Below, piece after piece: positions 18,859-54,359 of a DNA stretch of 64,000 bases (the first letter of the stretch is position 1; each line of letters starts with the position of its first letter). The position numbers and the translations under genes were made by a program. The notes beneath the pieces are model-generated. The model did no database searches and was not told where the DNA came from. It worked only from the letters and a program-made list of their open reading frames with translations. This DNA comes from Candidatus Saccharimonadota bacterium (lineage in GTDB: Bacteria; Patescibacteriota; Saccharimonadia; Saccharimonadales; Saccharimonadaceae), in assembly GCA_017515205.1 (NCBI GenBank), contig JAFWHN010000005.1, positions 13 through 64,012 on the forward strand. Direction: 5' to 3'.

Positions 18859-21036
18859 ATGCCTAGAAAAAAGCGAAAATCAACACGAAAAACTTCTCGG
18901 CGCTCCACTTCCAAAAAAGAAGCACCAGTTGAATATGAACTTCCCGGTGGTTTTTGGCGTCAAATTGGCGCAATCGTTATGATTGCACTAGCTCTTTTTT
19001 TCGTTGTCACTTGGTTCGGTCAGGGCGGTACCATTTTTAACAAAGTTCATGAATTTATTTTAAGCGGACTGGGCTTTGCTACTTACTTTATTCCAGCTCT
19101 ATTAGTTTATCTTGCCGTAAAAATTTTCCGTTCAGATGACAATCGCGTTGCGGTGCCGGTTTATATCGCAAGCGTTTTAATGATTTTCTGGATTTCCGGC
19201 ATCGCTGCAATTTGGCAAAATGGTGGACTCGTTGGTAGTTGGCTTAATTCTTTATCTACTAAGTTTTTAAGCCAAGGCGTGGTTATTTTTATTTACATCA
19301 TTTTGATTTTTATCACTACGGCTTTTCTCTTGCAACTTTCTCCAGTCACCTTCTTTAAAGGCACCAAAAATATGGTCAAACGTAGCAAAATCCCTGAAGC
19401 AACCGACGAAGATGATACCAAAAAAAGCAAAAAACTTGGTCAACTCGAAATTAAAGTCAATTCTGGCCTTAATGGGGAACAACCAGCTTCGTCTAGTCTT
19501 TTGCATAAATCTCCTGCTAAATCTGCTCCCGAACCAGCTAAAGAGCCTACAGCTCTTGTAGCAGTTTCTGATCCAGATTGGAAAATGCCAACTGTCGACT
19601 TACTAGAGAAAAAACAATCTCCAGCTGATGCTGGCAACATTCAGCAAAACGCCTACATCATTAAATCTACCTTGGCAGAATTTGGTATTGATGTTGAAAT
19701 GGAAGGTGCCAACGTTGGTCCACGCGTTACGCAGTATACCATGCGTCCACCAGCCGGCGTTAATCTATCCAAAATTCTTTCCCGTGACAAGGAATTAGCC
19801 CTTAATCTTGCTGTCGACAAAATTCGTATCGAAGCGCCAATTCCGGGCACGCGTTCAGTTGGCGTTGAAATTCCAAATGCTCGGTCTGCTGACGTACGTT
19901 TGCGTGGCGTGCTTGAAAGCCCTGAATGGAAAAAGTCTAATGATCCACTTTGTTTTGCCGTTGGTAAAGACATTTCCGGTCACGCCGTAATAGCCAATCT
20001 GGCTAAAATGCCTCACCTTCTCATCGCAGGTACCACTGGTTCAGGTAAGTCCGTTATGACCAACACCCTCATTAGCTCCCTGCTTTATCGCAATACTCCT
20101 TCCGACATGAAACTCATTATTGTCGACCCAAAACAGGTTGAAATGGCCCAGTATCAAGACATTCCTCACCTTCTTACGCCAATTATTACCAGCACCGAAA
20201 AAGCTCTTTCTGCCATGAAATGGGCAGTTGGCGAAATGGAACGTCGTTACACTTTGATGGCAGAAGCAAAAGTCAAAAACATCGGTGATTACAACGCCAA
20301 AATGGCTAAATCCGATCAAGAAGAAAGCGAAAGCAAAATGCCATACATTGTAATTGTGATTGATGAAATGGCTGACCTTATGATGATGGCGGGGAAAGAC
20401 CTTGAAATGCTCATCGTCCGCATCGCTCAAAAAGGCCGTGCTGCCGGTATTCATTTGGTACTTGCTACTCAGCGTCCGGAAGTAAAAGTTATTACTGGCC
20501 TTATTAAGGCTAACATTCCAGGTCGTATCGCCTTCGCGGTCGGTTCCCGCATCGATTCTCAGATTATGCTCGACCAAGGTGGTGCTGAAAAACTTCTTGG
20601 CAAAGGTGATATGTTGCTTCTCACCACTGAAATGATGGGTAAACCACGTCGTATTCAGGGCGCTTGGGCCTCTGATGAAGACATCAATAAAGTGACTGAT
20701 TTTCTCCGTTCTCAACGTGAGCCACAGTACAACGACGAAGTGATTGCTCAACAAGTTGCCATTAAAGGTATGCCAGGCGGTGGCGGCCCAAGTGACCTAG
20801 GTCGGCGTTTTGATCCGAATGACCCAACCGTCAGAAAAGCCGTTGAAATCACTCTAAAACAAGGTAAGTTTTCTACTGCATCATTACAAACTTGGCTAGG
20901 TAAAGGTCACGGTTTTGTAGCTGGACTTGCAATTTGGTTGGAAGAAATTGGCGTCATTGGCCCTGCAAACGGCAACAAACCTCGCGATGTCCTCATCACT
21001 TCCATGGACGAGTTTGACCAACTGAGCAACATGTAG
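18859..21036 (+). CDS. ftsK: DNA translocase FtsK/SpoIIIE
   Basis: 4TM N-terminus, HLLIAGTTGSGKS, IDEMADLM, ATQRP, gamma domain. Confidence 0.96.
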   Translation: MPRKKRKSTRKTSRRSTSKKEAPVEYELPGGFWRQIGAIVMIALALFFVVTWFGQGGTIFNKVHEFILSGLGFATYFIPALLVYLAVKIFRSDDNRVAVPVYIASVLMIFWISGIAAIWQNGGLVGSWLNSLSTKFLSQGVVIFIYIILIFITTAFLLQLSPVTFFKGTKNMVKRSKIPEATDEDDTKKSKKLGQLEIKVNSGLNGEQPASSSLLHKSPAKSAPEPAKEPTALVAVSDPDWKMPTVDLLEKKQSPADAGNIQQNAYIIKSTLAEFGIDVEMEGANVGPRVTQYTMRPPAGVNLSKILSRDKELALNLAVDKIRIEAPIPGTRSVGVEIPNARSADVRLRGVLESPEWKKSNDPLCFAVGKDISGHAVIANLAKMPHLLIAGTTGSGKSVMTNTLISSLLYRNTPSDMKLIIVDPKQVEMAQYQDIPHLLTPIITSTEKALSAMKWAVGEMERRYTLMAEAKVKNIGDYNAKMAKSDQEESESKMPYIVIVIDEMADLMMMAGKDLEMLIVRIAQKGRAAGIHLVLATQRPEVKVITGLIKANIPGRIAFAVGSRIDSQIMLDQGGAEKLLGKGDMLLLTTEMMGKPRRIQGAWASDEDINKVTDFLRSQREPQYNDEVIAQQVAIKGMPGGGGPSDLGRRFDPNDPTVRKAVEITLKQGKFSTASLQTWLGKGHGFVAGLAIWLEEIGVIGPANGNKPRDVLITSMDEFDQLSNM

Positions 21037-21148
21037 CAAAAACCGTGCTTGCACGGTTTTTCTATGTTGCGAAAGTTGGACGAATTATTCGACCAACTGA
21101 GCAACATGTAGCAAAAACCGTGCTTGCACGGTTTTTCTATGTTGCGAA
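21016..21148 (+). repeat. Tandem 58-bp exact direct repeat (period 75) containing the ftsK 3' end and a hairpin
   Basis: 21016-21073 is identical to 21091-21148; internal palindrome aaaaaccgtgc-tt-gcacggttttt. Confidence 0.92.
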
Positions 21149-39711: not shown

Positions 39712-39786
39712 TGGTGCGGGTATGGAGAGTCGGACTCCAATCTCATCCTTGGGAAGGATACATAATAGCCGTTATACGATACCCGC
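39712..39786 (-). tRNA. tRNA-Gly(CCC)
   Basis: GCGGGTA/TACCCGC; TATCC-TTCCCAA-GGATG; T-loop TCCGACT; A73-CCA. Confidence 0.9.
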
Positions 39787-39835
39787 GACTCTCCCTATTA
39801 TAGCACACGGGCTTAGATTATGGTATAATAATTTT

Positions 39836-41701
39836 ATGCAAGGATTAAAAGACCAACTTAAAAAAATTATTCAAGATTTGTATGGCCTCGATTTTGATCC
39901 CGAAGTTACTCCTGCTCCCGAGAATGTCACTGCCGATTATTCTACCAATGCACCCTTGAAACTTGCCAAAGAACTCCATAAATCTCCAATGATAATAGCA
40001 GAGGAGTTACAGAAAGCTTTTGTGAGCGTTCGCGACGACGGGAGCGAACGACGAAGCGCCGCCCGTAACGACGGGCCGGCGCGAGGAGGCGAGCAAAAGG
40101 TTTCTATAACTCCTCCTGGATTCATCAATTTCACTTTATCCGATTCTTACCTAGCAGAAAAGATTGATAGTTTATCAACTGATTTTGATCAATCTATTGT
40201 CTCTAATGATTACAAAGGTAAGACTGTGATTTGCGAGTTCAGCGATCCCAATCCTTTCAAAGTCCTTCACGTTGGTCACCTTTATACTAGTATCGTCGGT
40301 GACGCCATTTCAAATCTTTTTGAATATGCCGGCGCTAAGGTCATCCGCGCCAATTTCGGTGGTGACGTCGGTCTTCACGTGGCTAAAACCATGTATGTTC
40401 TACGGCAAAAGAATCCCAAAGAGATTCAAATCGAAGACATCTCCAGATGTTATGTCGAAGGTACCGCTCTTTATGAAGAAGATGAAAAAGCTCACCAAGA
40501 AATTACCGAGCTTAACAAAGAGATTTACAAAATCAATTCCGAAAACCTTCACGATTCTGACCTCGCTGAGTTATACTGGCAGGGCAGGGAATTATCTTAC
40601 GATTATTTCAAGAAGTTTTATGAGTCTATCGGCGTCAAGTTTGATAAGTATTATCCTGAATCTACCGTTGCGGCTCTTGGTCTAAAAACTGTCAAAGAAC
40701 AGCTAGAAAAAGGCGTCTACGAAAAAAGTGAAGGTGCTGTGATTTTCAACGGTGACAAATATGGCCTCCATACTCGCGTCTTTATTAATAGAGAAGGTGT
40801 CCCTACTTACGAAGCTAAGGATGTGGGTCTAATCTTCACTAAATGGCAAGATTATCATTTTGACAAATCTGTCGTCATTACTGGTTCCGAGCAGCTTGAT
40901 TACATGAAAGTGGTCTTAAAATCGGTCGAACAATACGCGCCCGAATTAGTTGAGCGCACCAGCCATTTAACTCACGGCCTTGTCAAACTCCCTGGTAATG
41001 TCAAAATGTCTTCTCGAAAAGGTAATTTCTTAAAAGCCGTTGACGTTCTCGATATGGTCAAAAACGAGCTAAAAACTGAGTATAACTCCGATGACGAGAT
41101 TGTCTCTCTCGCTGCTACCAAATATGCTTTCCTGAAATATAAAATGGGCGGCAACATTATCTTCGATCCGAAAGAATCCGTCAAAATGACCGGCAATTCC
41201 GGCCCATACCTGCTATATTCCGCCGTTCGTGCCGAAAAGATTCTTGAAAAGACGCAGGAGGGGCTCAAAAACAAGACACGAGTGAGCATTCACGACAACG
41301 GGAGTGAACGACGAAGCGCCACCCGTGACGACCGTCGTAGGAGCCGAGAAGACGAAAAGCTTGCTTTTCGTGTCGAGGCCACGCCCGACGGACGACCTAT
41401 GGTCGACGGGCCGGCGCGAGGAGGCGAGCGAGGGCTTGTTTTTGAGCCCTCCGAACGTGACTTATCTAAAAAGCTGTTGGACTATAAAGGAGTCTTGCAG
41501 GTCGCCGTTGCCGAAATGGCTCCGCACAAATTAGCGAATTACTTATACGAACTTGCCCAAACCTTTAGCCGTTTCTACGAGAGCTGTCCTGTAGCTGGCA
41601 GCGATCGAGAAGAGGAGCGCTTAAAGCTCGTCCAAGTCTACCTAGACACCATGACTCACGGTCTTAAAATTTTAGATATTAATATTCCGGAGGAAATGTA
41701 A
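39836..41701 (+). CDS. argS: Arginine--tRNA ligase with two in-frame repeat insertions
   Basis: PGFINF, DPNPFKVLHVGH, KMSSRKG, GNSGPYLLY; start after TATAAT + 6 nt. Confidence 0.95.
   Translation: MQGLKDQLKKIIQDLYGLDFDPEVTPAPENVTADYSTNAPLKLAKELHKSPMIIAEELQKAFVSVRDDGSERRSAARNDGPARGGEQKVSITPPGFINFTLSDSYLAEKIDSLSTDFDQSIVSNDYKGKTVICEFSDPNPFKVLHVGHLYTSIVGDAISNLFEYAGAKVIRANFGGDVGLHVAKTMYVLRQKNPKEIQIEDISRCYVEGTALYEEDEKAHQEITELNKEIYKINSENLHDSDLAELYWQGRELSYDYFKKFYESIGVKFDKYYPESTVAALGLKTVKEQLEKGVYEKSEGAVIFNGDKYGLHTRVFINREGVPTYEAKDVGLIFTKWQDYHFDKSVVITGSEQLDYMKVVLKSVEQYAPELVERTSHLTHGLVKLPGNVKMSSRKGNFLKAVDVLDMVKNELKTEYNSDDEIVSLAATKYAFLKYKMGGNIIFDPKESVKMTGNSGPYLLYSAVRAEKILEKTQEGLKNKTRVSIHDNGSERRSATRDDRRRSREDEKLAFRVEATPDGRPMVDGPARGGERGLVFEPSERDLSKKLLDYKGVLQVAVAEMAPHKLANYLYELAQTFSRFYESCPVAGSDREEERLKLVQVYLDTMTHGLKILDINIPEEM
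40022..40094 (+). repeat. GC-rich palindromic element, copy 1 (in argS)
   Basis: 73 nt; near-identical to 41282-41332 joined to 41408-41429. Confidence 0.9.
41261..41449 (+). repeat. Palindromic element copy 2 with nested 75-nt insert and 15-bp terminal inverted repeats (in argS)
   Basis: gggctcaaaaacaag (41261-41275) and cttgtttttgagccc (41435-41449) are perfect inverted repeats. Confidence 0.9.
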
Positions 41702-51981: not shown

Positions 51982-54359
51982 TGAAGCGTTTAGTATTAAT
52001 CGATGGTAAATCAGTTTTCTATCGTGGATACTATGCTATGGGCGCTCTTAGCCTCTCAGATGGCACCCCTACTGGTGGCGTTTACGGTTTTGCTGCCATT
52101 GCCATGGAGATTGTCAAAAAACTTGACCCTACCAAAGTCGTGGTAGCTTGGGACTCAAAAACTTCTACCGCCAAACGTCGTGCCATTTACCAAGATTATA
52201 AAGCTGGTCGCATTAAGCCCGGCGAAGATTTCTATACTCAAATACCTTTGCTTCAAACTTTAATTCAAGATTTAGGCTGGAGTTTTGTTGAAATTGATAA
52301 TTATGAAGCAGACGATATCATTGGGACACTAAGTCGTGAAGCCGACGAAGCCGGAGACTATGAAACTTACATTATTTCCAGCGACCTCGACATGCTCCAA
52401 ATTGTCGATAGCAATACCCATATGTGGCGTATTCTTAAAGGTTTCACTAATATTGAAAAAATTAATGTCCCCGAGCTAGAAGCTAAGTACGGCATCAAAA
52501 AGTCTCAATTCTTAGATCTTAAAGCTTTGAAAGGCGATTCTTCCGATAATATCCCAGGCGTTCCTGGCATCGGCGAGAAAACCGCTGCAAAATTATTAAA
52601 TGATTATGGTGATTTGGATAACCTTTATGAGCATCTAGATGAAATCAAGGGTTCCACCAAGACCAAACTTGAAGCAGGGAAAGATTCTGCCTATATGTCT
52701 CGTGACCTTGCTCGTATTATGTTTGACGCACCTGTTGACCTCAAAAAAATCCCTGATTTTCATTTTGACCAAGACAAAGTAATATCTGGCCTCAAAAAGC
52801 TCGAATTCAACTCCCTCATCCGCAAGGTTGACAAGGAAGCGCTCGAAAAAAATACTTTCGAGGAGCATAATCGCCGAGGGCCGGCCGCCCGTGGCGACGG
52901 GCCAGCCGGACGCGGCCCCAGAAGTAACAATGCTTCAGTGCCTGACATCATTGATTGGGACATCAAAGGCTTAATGCATAGCGACCAAACCATCGCCGAT
53001 GCAATTCTATCTGGCAAAAAATCTTTTTGGGACCTCGGCCAAGCTACCTTTTTGTTAAATCCTCTTTCGCGTGAAGAGCCACACCTTGCAGTTTTAGAAG
53101 AAGAGTACCAGCGTCAATTAACCGAATTTGCAAAAAATCCTCAACTTCTCAGTATCTATCAAGATTTTGATCTTCCACTCATCCCAATTCTATACAAAAT
53201 GGAAGATAAAGGCATGACTTTAGACTCAGATTATTTTAAAAAGCTTAAATCCGAATACGAGGAAATTATCCAGAACCTTGAACAAGAAATTTATCAATTG
53301 GCTGGTCAAGAATTAAATCTCAACTCACCCATTCAACTCTCCGAAGTGCTATTCAATAAGTTGCAACTTCCGACTAAAGGTATTAAAAAGACTACGCGGG
53401 GTTATTCTACTGGTGCTAAAGAATTAGATAAACTTCAAAATCTTCATCCTGTCATTCCCAAAATTATCGAATATCGCGAAGCTGCCAAACTTTTAAATAC
53501 TTACATTATTCCTTTGCCAGAACTTGCTGATTCGAACAATCGTATTCATACTACTTTTACTCAAAACGTTACTGCTACTGGTCGCCTTAGCTCCAAGGAT
53601 CCCAATCTCCAGAATATTCCTGTCCGCACTGACGAAGGCAAGCGTATCCGCACTGGTTTTATCGCACCGAAGGGCAAAATCTTTGTTTCCGCTGATTATT
53701 CTCAATTTGAACTCCGCCTTGCCGCCGTTCTTTCAAACGATCAGGCCCTTATTGATGATTTTAATCACGACATCGACGTTCATACCAAGACTGCCTCTGA
53801 AGCATTCAAAACTCCTTTTGCAAAAGTTACCAAGACACAACGTCGTGCTGCTAAGGTGATTAATTTTGGCATTCTTTATGGTATGAGTGTCAAAGGCTTG
53901 TCTGATGCTGCTAAAATGCCATTTAACGAAGCTAAAGATTTTATCGACAATTATTTCAAATTACGTGCACCTATTAAACAAAAATTGGAGGCTATCTTAA
54001 AACAAGCCAGGGAAGCAGGCTTCGTCGAAACTTTCTACGGCCGTCGCCGTCCTACGCCAGACGTTAAATCAAGTAATTTCCTTATCCGCCAAGCCGCTGA
54101 GCGTGCTGCTGCCAATATGCCGATTCAGGGTACCGAAGCTGATCTCATGAAACGCGCCATGATCCAAGTTGACCAGGCTTTGCCAGATGATGCTTCTCTG
54201 GTCATGCAAGTGCATGATTCTCTTATTGTGGAATGTGACGAAAAATCAGCTCAACTGGTATCCGATATTCTTAAAACCAAAATGGAAGCCATTGCTCCTG
54301 AATTAAAAATCAAACTTGCTGTTGACGTGACCACTGGCCACAACTGGGGCGAATTATAA
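51981..54359 (+). CDS. polA: DNA polymerase I (reduced 3'-5' exonuclease region)
   Basis: YEADD, GDSSDNIPGV, TGRLSS..PNLQNIP, ADYSQ.ELR, K..NFG..YG, QVHD. Confidence 0.96.
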   Translation: MKRLVLIDGKSVFYRGYYAMGALSLSDGTPTGGVYGFAAIAMEIVKKLDPTKVVVAWDSKTSTAKRRAIYQDYKAGRIKPGEDFYTQIPLLQTLIQDLGWSFVEIDNYEADDIIGTLSREADEAGDYETYIISSDLDMLQIVDSNTHMWRILKGFTNIEKINVPELEAKYGIKKSQFLDLKALKGDSSDNIPGVPGIGEKTAAKLLNDYGDLDNLYEHLDEIKGSTKTKLEAGKDSAYMSRDLARIMFDAPVDLKKIPDFHFDQDKVISGLKKLEFNSLIRKVDKEALEKNTFEEHNRRGPAARGDGPAGRGPRSNNASVPDIIDWDIKGLMHSDQTIADAILSGKKSFWDLGQATFLLNPLSREEPHLAVLEEEYQRQLTEFAKNPQLLSIYQDFDLPLIPILYKMEDKGMTLDSDYFKKLKSEYEEIIQNLEQEIYQLAGQELNLNSPIQLSEVLFNKLQLPTKGIKKTTRGYSTGAKELDKLQNLHPVIPKIIEYREAAKLLNTYIIPLPELADSNNRIHTTFTQNVTATGRLSSKDPNLQNIPVRTDEGKRIRTGFIAPKGKIFVSADYSQFELRLAAVLSNDQALIDDFNHDIDVHTKTASEAFKTPFAKVTKTQRRAAKVINFGILYGMSVKGLSDAAKMPFNEAKDFIDNYFKLRAPIKQKLEAILKQAREAGFVETFYGRRRPTPDVKSSNFLIRQAAERAAANMPIQGTEADLMKRAMIQVDQALPDDASLVMQVHDSLIVECDEKSAQLVSDILKTKMEAIAPELKIKLAVDVTTGHNWGEL
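52878..52918 (+). repeat. Palindromic element related to the argS copies (in polA)
   Basis: gccgcccgtggcgacgggccagc (52884-52906) matches argS gccgcccgtaacgacgggccggc at 20/23. Confidence 0.8.

Follow-up and report, generated by a model that had tools for sequence, protein, structure and literature searches.

What are the GC-rich segments that interrupt the arginyl-tRNA synthetase gene (argS) of a Candidatus Nanosyncoccus bacterium (Saccharibacteria), and how could an essential enzyme come to carry two of them? We analysed a window of 64,000 nucleotides (positions 13 to 64,012 of contig JAFWHN010000005.1, assembly GCA_017515205.1), in which an earlier inspection of the letters, here called the sequence-only reading, had described a nested structured element in the anticodon-binding domain of ArgRS. 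Our preferred answer, to which we give a probability of roughly 0.7, is that both segments belong to a GC-rich, putatively translated repeat that is restricted to one genus, resembles the palindromic elements of Rickettsia, and has been shaped by fold-back template switching and gene conversion.

Two copies of the element in argS

The gene at 39836-41701 is the sole argS of the genome. A longer open reading frame (ORF), 39722-41701, overlaps a minus-strand tRNA gene (39715-39786, 49.6 bits), and the ATG at 39836 was therefore taken as the start; the 659- and 634-amino-acid forms in which ArgRS is annotated, here and in one relative, are probably over-extended. Pfam domains were assigned to residues 4-62 (Arg_tRNA_synt_N), 127-411 (tRNA-synt_1d) and 537-621 (DALR_1). 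The two element-bearing patches have a GC content of 59-64%, against 41% genome-wide. Each contains a conserved core of about 70 nt that folds as a three-way junction, in which an outer closing stem, made of a left and a right arm, meets a variable hairpin (P1) and a conserved GC hairpin with a bulged C (P2). The four-base P2 loop has the form RRMG (GACG, AACG, GAAG or GGCG). Below, R1 denotes a covariance model built from 17 copies of the element and R2 a covariance model of module N, the 75-nt piece nested in copy 2. The features, all on the plus strand, are as follows.

39836-41701, plus strand: argS, arginyl-tRNA synthetase, 621 amino acids (Pfam and single-copy search)
40001-40022, plus strand: left arm of copy 1 (GAGGAGTTACAGAAAGCTTTTG), pairing at 20 of 22 positions with the right arm
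40023-40093, plus strand: core of copy 1, with P1 (TTCGC..GCGAA), P2 (GCGCCGCCCGT-AACG-ACGGG(C)CGGCGC) and GAGGAGG at its end
40094-40115, plus strand: right arm of copy 1 (CAAAAGGTTTCTATAACTCCTC, read as QKVSITPP), native ArgRS sequence that aligns with SKVEIAGP of Escherichia coli ArgRS
41257-41275, plus strand: left arm of copy 2 (GGAGGGGCTCAAAAACAAG), containing the 15-bp repeat 41261-41275
41276-41332, plus strand: 5' part of the core of copy 2, with the inner arm, the P1 hairpin, the 5' strand of P2 (41316-41326) and the start of its loop
41333-41407, plus strand: module N, 75 nt, in the P2 loop of copy 2 (R2, 119 bits)
41408-41434, plus strand: 3' part of the core of copy 2, with the rest of the 3' strand of P2 (41406-41417), GAGGAGG and the inner arm
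41435-41452, plus strand: right arm of copy 2 (CTTGTTTTTGAGCCCTCC), containing the 15-bp repeat 41435-41449

A direct check of the sequence bore out the earlier description of the second copy as the same element in the same frame with an extra piece nested in it. The two copies have 51 nt in common at 88% identity and a further 26 nt at 100%, a match of a kind that occurred 0 times in 100 shuffles, and they share one reading frame (VRDDGSERRSAARNDGPARGGE and IHDNGSERRSATRDD...DGPARGGE). Copy 1 scored 82.9 bits with R1 over 40016-40105, and its core encodes the peptide SVRDDGSERRSAARNDGPARGGE between the N-terminal and catalytic domains. The P1 hairpin reads TTCGC/GCGAA in copy 1 versus TTCAC/GTGAA in copy 2 (41289-41293 and 41304-41308), just as had been reported. 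The 75-nt insert with its CGAC pair and inner hairpin was found as described, as were the perfect 15-bp inverted repeats that bracket copy 2 (GGGCTCAAAAACAAG, 41261-41275; CTTGTTTTTGAGCCC, 41435-41449); the pairing of these repeats reaches 41257-41452, giving 18 bp with one bulged G.

A dispersed, in-frame family confined to one genus

The argS element is not solitary. R1 matched 19 times in the 650-kb genome, and extra copies surfaced in BLAST searches, a GC-island scan and a scan for the P2-loop motif (15 matches versus 1.1 expected). Eleven housekeeping genes hold 13 of the approximately 20 copies, each within a continuous ORF, and the remainder are intergenic. The coding copies are in ArgRS (two), PolA (partial), LepA, TruB, a tRNA U5-methyltransferase homologue, GatA, UvrB, an RMKL-like methyltransferase (two), MnmA, GatB and PriA, mostly at domain boundaries. 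Seven of the 13 stand in sense and six in antisense orientation, and several frames are used; the resulting peptides include DDGSERRSAARNDGPARGGE, FATTGANGEASPVTTGASDEG and GLSEVTTENEGASPVTTGRSD, and, from antisense copies, SSLAPVVTGLASSIAPVVAN. Among relatives, 22 of 28 sampled copies were within long ORFs. The 13 coding copies here and the 22 in relatives all keep the host frame and contain no stop codon, so that ribosomes would translate straight through them. Owing to the composition of the element, five of its six frames are open, and the stronger point is therefore that zero copies shift the frame of the host gene. Judging from this frame preservation, the inserts probably add 25-60 residues of charged, presumably disordered loop; the predicted peptides in argS, uvrB, gatA and lepA include DDGSER..., LAFRVEATPDGR and ASPVTTGR. 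One copy is reduced:

52855-52931, plus strand: partial, degenerate copy in polA, essentially the P2 hairpin, in frame (R1, 39.5 bits)

Its peptide, HNRRGPAARGDGPAGRGPR, falls in the linker that joins the 5'-nuclease and polymerase domains. Every other copy folds as one extended hairpin (outer stem, junction, P1 and P2) of about 110-130 nt, which module N extends to 196 nt. The closing stem spans 15-30 bp and its sequence is unique to each locus; by outer stem, the median is 21 pairs and the maximum 31. In one subfamily the single-stranded junction stretches read TTTCGGAG, GAGAATTAGG and GACCCGT, and an inner inverted repeat, GGGAC/GTCCC (5-6 bp), is common to copies of one subfamily. Double-sided changes were seen at 8 of 11 P2 pairs among the copies.

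The R1 search detected the element in 27 of 28 sampled genomes of Candidatus Nanosyncoccus. In a first survey 23 of 24 genus genomes were positive, with 1-35 copies apiece, and there were no matches in 16 other genera of the order; in a class-wide survey four of four further genus genomes were positive, and so were none of the 146 genomes that represented 97 other genera of the class. Among 185,579 species genomes, an exact 25-mer taken from the argS subfamily occurred only in metagenome-assembled genomes (MAGs) of Candidatus Saccharibacteria / Candidatus Nanosyncoccus, which come from sheep and goat intestine, and the ArgRS, UvrB and GatA homologues are labelled Candidatus Saccharibacteria by their sources. 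The family is thus restricted to Candidatus Nanosyncoccus.

These counts also bear on whether the inserts are real. The genome is a metagenome-assembled draft in nine contigs and the GC content of the inserts looks foreign, as it would if the contig were chimeric or if GC-rich foreign reads had been collapsed into argS during assembly or binning. Independent assemblies made from other samples nevertheless carry these inserts at identical sites: the argS site 2 insert recurs without the 75 nt in one relative (locus L021) and with them in another (L022). The frame is unbroken through both argS inserts, and the 27 element-carrying genomes hold hundreds of copies in total. Recurrence in independent assemblies already refutes an artefact, for which we see next to no room. 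Neither finding that the sequence-only reading had named as fatal to its account, a chimeric assembly or a lack of further copies, was encountered.

Module N is a recurrent second module

The 75-nt piece extends exactly from 41333 to 41407, with CGAC at 41329-41332 and at 41404-41407. It is closed by a stem (CCGTCG/CGACGG) and forms a hairpin (ACGAAAAGC-TT-GCTTTTCGT) as well as a second, small one (CGACC-TAT-GGTCG); its predicted peptide is RRRSREDEKLAFRVEATPDGRPMVD. BLAST of the piece against this genome returned no close copy. A clearly homologous piece, again of exactly 75 nt, sits in the P2 loop of the UvrB copy from a different species, with the same orientation relative to the outer element. 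Twelve of 37 pairs of the module were compensated and 96% of cells were paired. R2 found weaker relatives in nine genomes, eight of them from other members of the genus and one being the present genome.

Two of the R2 matches here, C2:77814-77909 and C8:25510-25613, are branched hairpins directly downstream of tRNA genes. They share with module N the arrangement CNGNCG-TAGGAG-SCGAA-[hairpin]-TGAGSC-GACGCC-CNGCNG, are larger, carry a second hairpin with a GYTA loop, and had no Rfam match. The GGAG...CCGAGAA part of the module N motif resembles the junction of the main family. Taken together, the piece treated by the sequence-only reading as an anonymous insert is a second, distinct and recurrent structured module, related to the main family. 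The CGAC duplication that it had noted is present, but CGAC belongs to the conserved module N structure and to the P2 loop, and is therefore weak evidence for a target-site duplication.

Four R1 matches of 123-127 nt rather than 90 were also observed (G157:C4:27952-28078, G104:C1:20974-21100, G180:C7:60210-60335 and G021:C3:16346-16468). They contain internal additions of about 35 nt, and nesting therefore goes beyond module N.

The arms are specific to each locus and partly derived from the host gene

Outer stems of different loci had no sequence in common. At argS site 2, six species carried six different arm pairs, all of them complementary: GGAGGGGCTCAAAAACAAG / CTTGTTTTTGAGCCCTCC in this genome, GGAGGTTCCAAAAATGAAGCTCG / CGAGAGCTCATTTTTGAAACCTCC at L021, AATTCCGAAAACAAGGTTCG / CGAGAACTTGTTTTGGAATT at L022, and three more in genomes G006, G011 and G017. 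Many arms of relatives were perfect over 25-29 bp. When GatA of this genome was compared with a homologue of about 82% identity, the core peptide was identical and the arms differed at about one third of positions, yet still paired.

Comparisons with insert-free homologues indicated where the arms come from. At argS site 1, QKVSITPP of the right arm aligns with SKVEIAGP, which directly precedes PGFIN in E. coli ArgRS, and also with VKITPP of an insert-free relative; a perfect inverse of this arm would place an in-frame TAG in the left arm, which actually reads CAG there. The right-arm sequence, whole or in its outer part, is kept in insert-free GatA homologues (..SPDSCAR, ..NSRAR; DS[C/R]AR), whereas the left arm (TGAGSGDSG), the complement of the right, has no counterpart in them. 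For YchF it is the left arm that aligns with the empty sequence of this genome, and the right arm is extra. Net insert sizes of 25-42 amino acids match the length of the core by itself or with a single arm added. In GatA, YchF and ArgRS site 1, then, one arm belongs to the native gene and its partner is an inverted copy of that arm. Intergenic copies occupy the loops of terminator-type hairpins; after rplA, for example, the core sits in the loop of a hairpin between an A-run and a T-run, where relatives have a plain terminator hairpin.

At the empty argS sites of G012 and G004, no pre-existing hairpin was found beyond a weak GAAGAG/CTCCTC match. UvrB P0217 was ruled out as an empty site and classed as a deletion derivative, because the last 5 nt of the right arm are kept in its DNA. 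For LeuRS, the divergence between filled and empty forms was too high for the arms to be assigned.

Arms that are locus- and species-specific and partly host sequence are not transposon terminal repeats, and the term "terminal inverted repeats" used by the sequence-only reading was accordingly given up. The same property bears on the idea that the element is a classical miniature inverted-repeat transposable element (MITE), that is, an insertion sequence shortened by deletion and mobilised in trans by a transposase that binds its terminal repeats, with direct target duplications such as the CGAC around the nested piece. Small dispersed copies, at 1-35 per genome, would suit a MITE, as would the inner GGGAC/GTCCC repeat conserved in one subfamily and the 4-bp direct repeat on both sides of the 75-nt piece. 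However, the long arms cannot be a transposase binding site, CGAC has the structural explanation given above, and no direct duplications are evident around the main element. In addition, the Y1/RAYT HUH transposase that the earlier inspection had proposed to look for (PF01797, the sole transposase family searched) was found neither in this genome nor in 23 of 24 genus genomes, nearly all of them element carriers, while controls matched. We therefore consider a MITE improbable. The only Y1 (IS200/IS605-type) transposase in the genus sample, at G023:C4:44075-44431 (L053), is uncorrelated with the element.

Stepwise states and concerted evolution

Relatives displayed the stepwise states whose comparison had been suggested at the outset. 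The closest ArgRS (L021, with 95% identity in the alignment) contains the element at site 2 but is short of exactly the 75 nt. ArgRS of L022 (76% identity) carries the piece, and its paired bases have changed in a compensatory way (AAAAGC/GCTTTT to GAAAGC/GCTTTC, and CCGTCG/CGACGG to CCGCCG/TGGCGG). Other ArgRS homologues show internal deletions (GGSE|RGGE), remnants or empty sites, and the UvrB and GatA homologues cover the same graded range.

At L022 the cores of argS sites 1 and 2 are 99% identical to each other, as against 78-84% identity with the same-site cores of this genome. Copies inside a genome are thus more alike than same-site copies between species, which is concerted evolution. 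At site 2 of L021 the 5' strand of P2 comes from another subfamily (GCGAGCCCCG) and faces the original 3' strand; this site looks like a conversion tract that also took out the 75 nt. With the two argS sites occupied across many species, and with copies that show concerted evolution, we suggest that old insertions have been overwritten in place.

In the opposite course, separate insertions would have struck a few permissive or targeted hot spots again and again, and this would explain why the same protein loops hold different subfamilies, sometimes flipped, in different species. Loops of ArgRS, UvrB, GatB, TruB, LepA, MnmA and a methyltransferase are filled in this manner, with orientation sometimes opposite between species at a shared loop, and the perfect arms of some species suggest recent events. 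On the other hand, remnants and partial deletions at the same sites imply long residence, the 99% versus 78-84% identities are as gene conversion predicts, the chimeric core of L021 looks like a conversion tract, and an inversion between the arms would account for flips without re-insertion. Fresh insertion at hot spots is accordingly rather unlikely in our view. In line with the sequence-only reading, the inserts are passed on as additional protein sequence of an essential gene that exists in a single copy; the wording "repeated" insertions used there is doubtful, given sites that are widely filled and copies that evolve in concert.

Several individual sites deserve mention. In obg (C9:96906-97060) an AT-rich segment (KEASTENLESNQTTNASGDNSSR) stands where a relative has a GC-rich element of similar length, and it looks like a decayed copy turned into ordinary linker sequence. 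The pepN homologue (C4:6250-6320), an M1 aminopeptidase (LTNVPMGEPTPRMSTYLL), is shorter than canonical at a site filled in two relatives, which suggests that loss of the element removed native residues too. ArgRS of G006 (L017) has three in-frame inserts, two at the sites held in common and a third of about 48 amino acids in the catalytic domain (AAGEPEKVLSRRLNTEGGHGRVTDLEGAPRSQLCENGGEKSGRTRPEN), and ArgRS homologue P0004 carries a different, longer insert (...ISRFANSETYIPDGAEKAARRADFPGRPVYDVEEEQVRPQKGSSDKTRV...) in the same linker at site 2.

Outside the element family, window positions 21013-21148 hold a 61-nt unit twice in tandem, at a distance of 75 nt and with 98% identity between the two; both contain a hairpin (AAAAACCGTGCTTGCACGGTTTTT). 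These units are terminator-like and form a separate repeat family.

A fold-back model and the evidence on either side

The mechanism that we propose begins with the stable core, which would make nascent single-stranded DNA fold back during replication. An intrastrand template switch at the base of the hairpin would then copy the adjacent flank in inverted form, so that arms could be created, lengthened and repaired. Gene conversion among dispersed cores would homogenise the copies and add or remove module N. Entry appears to favour hairpin loops, and selection on the host protein would keep in-frame, stop-free copies in tolerant loops, some of which would later decay to linker. Templated arm repair of this kind would mimic compensatory evolution without selection on structure. 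The sequence-only reading had taken the covariation as a sign of selection on nucleic-acid structure; pairing is indeed kept through double changes, but such selection is not required, as templated correction gives the same pattern.

The structure itself nevertheless raises the alternative of a functional RNA in mRNAs or untranslated regions, either an intervening sequence that cleaves itself or is processed by RNase III, with excision and religation, or a regulatory, pausing or stabilising element. The three-way junction with conserved junction nucleotides, the strong covariation, closing helices of 20-30 bp similar to RNase III substrates and the location of sites at domain boundaries are all compatible with such a role. 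It is nonetheless made unlikely by the random orientation (7 sense versus 6 antisense coding copies) and by the preserved frames, since excision would make it needless for 13 coding copies here and 22 in relatives to be in frame and stop-free. Decayed, AT-rich remnants also survive as ordinary protein linkers. An Rfam scan of argS, two family B copies and two module-N-like loci returned only tRNAs at E<=0.1; beyond these there were two chance-level matches (E 0.15-0.95). We judge a function at the RNA level very unlikely.

Several considerations weigh against the model of a translated repeat shaped by template switching and gene conversion. Translation of the inserts is presumed from frame preservation. 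The template-switch origin of the arms is likewise reconstructed from end states, with no fresh insertion caught. The differing subfamilies and orientations at one loop could mean repeated independent insertion, and some "empty" alleles are deletion derivatives, as UvrB P0217 is and GatA P0318 may be. Mobility may depend on another enzyme, or on one supplied by a plasmid, phage or host bacterium. G:T mismatches in the outer stems outnumbered A:C mismatches 51 to 16, an excess that would fit pairing at the RNA level, though the counting method favours G:U because the folding program does, and the ratio was not used as evidence. Finally, an AlphaFold2 model from a 13-sequence alignment was too poor to use (mean predicted local distance difference test score, pLDDT, of 51, and 23-32 for the inserts) and cannot support the inserts as surface loops.

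A bolder version of the fold-back model, which we put forward only tentatively, makes the hairpin a "seed": a new kind of selfish DNA without a transposase that enters a loop, after which replication copies the host flank as an inverted arm. If true, this would be an inverted, templated target duplication, a self-extending and self-repairing palindrome that drives concerted evolution, and it would steadily supply new peptide segments to essential proteins of a Candidate Phyla Radiation (CPR) bacterium.

Comparison with known systems

Bacterial MITEs, such as Correia/NEMIS, ERIC, BOX and QMITE, are likewise small, non-autonomous, structured and dispersed, with occasional in-frame intragenic fusions, and some overlap terminators (reviewed in PMC10969869). 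The Nanosyncoccus element differs from them in having no conserved terminal inverted repeats, only a 5-6 bp inner repeat in one subfamily, and in having no evident direct target duplications around the main element; no parent insertion sequence was found, PF01797 being the only family searched. With REP/REPIN sequences, which go with RAYT (Y1 HUH) transposases, it shares short, GC-rich, dispersed hairpins that are often near terminators. It departs from them in that this genome has no RAYT/Y1 gene (PF01797), in that about two thirds of the copies are intragenic where REP/REPIN are predominantly extragenic, and in that the core is a branched junction, not a simple palindrome of 20-40 nt.

Quasipalindrome template-switch mutagenesis (the Ripley model), studied in E. 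coli, produces point and complex mutations at small hairpins. It accounts for templated, simultaneous "compensatory" changes and for insertions that perfect or extend imperfect inverted repeats, and switching of this type may operate at the Nanosyncoccus elements. To our knowledge, it has not been described as building arms of 20-30 bp around a dispersed repeat. Intervening sequences in rRNA genes, among them those common in CPR bacteria, are similar in placing extra helices with a long closing stem in essential genes of reduced genomes. They are, however, removed by RNase III and lie in non-coding RNA, whereas the Nanosyncoccus copies are in frame, stop-free and randomly oriented.

The closest likeness is to Rickettsia palindromic elements (RPE), which were reportedly described by Ogata et al. 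in 2000. Both are short palindromic repeats (about 100-150 bp in Rickettsia; here 19 R1 matches of about 110-130 nt) in a reduced genome, present in dozens of copies, about half or more of them in frame in unrelated housekeeping genes (here 13 of about 20). Both supply extra peptide segments compatible with protein function, as frame preservation suggests for the present case, and recur at identical sites across several species within a genus. RPE have no known cognate transposase, and none of the Y1/RAYT type was found here in the PF01797 search. RPE are summarised in PMC10969869, and the RPE families were compared by description only. By that comparison, the Nanosyncoccus element belongs to Saccharibacteria of the CPR, has another sequence and is GC-rich in a genome of 41% GC. 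Its closing stem differs from locus to locus and reproduces host flank sequence, not a family consensus; its copies are open in both orientations and several frames, in which they are probably translated. Its core is branched, with a second module nested in a hairpin loop, and its copies show clear concerted evolution. Confinement of the element to Saccharibacteria genomes makes common descent with RPE implausible, and we class it as working like RPE, not as a member.

A literature search returned no earlier account of such repeats for Saccharibacteria or Nanosyncoccus, with repeats being the subject of none of the Nanosyncoccus papers listed, and this is apparently, as far as the literature found goes, the first description of in-frame palindromic repeats in the CPR. 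The element would explain part of the unexplained length variation that conserved proteins show in these genomes, which is relevant to annotation, alignment and phylogenomics of CPR genomes. Its arms, which derive from the host and co-vary, provide a natural model for the origin and growth of palindromes and for their tolerance in essential genes, together with a warning that compensatory changes can stem from templated mutation instead of structural selection. On this comparison, the phenomenon known from Rickettsia would have arisen independently in another reduced, host-dependent lineage.

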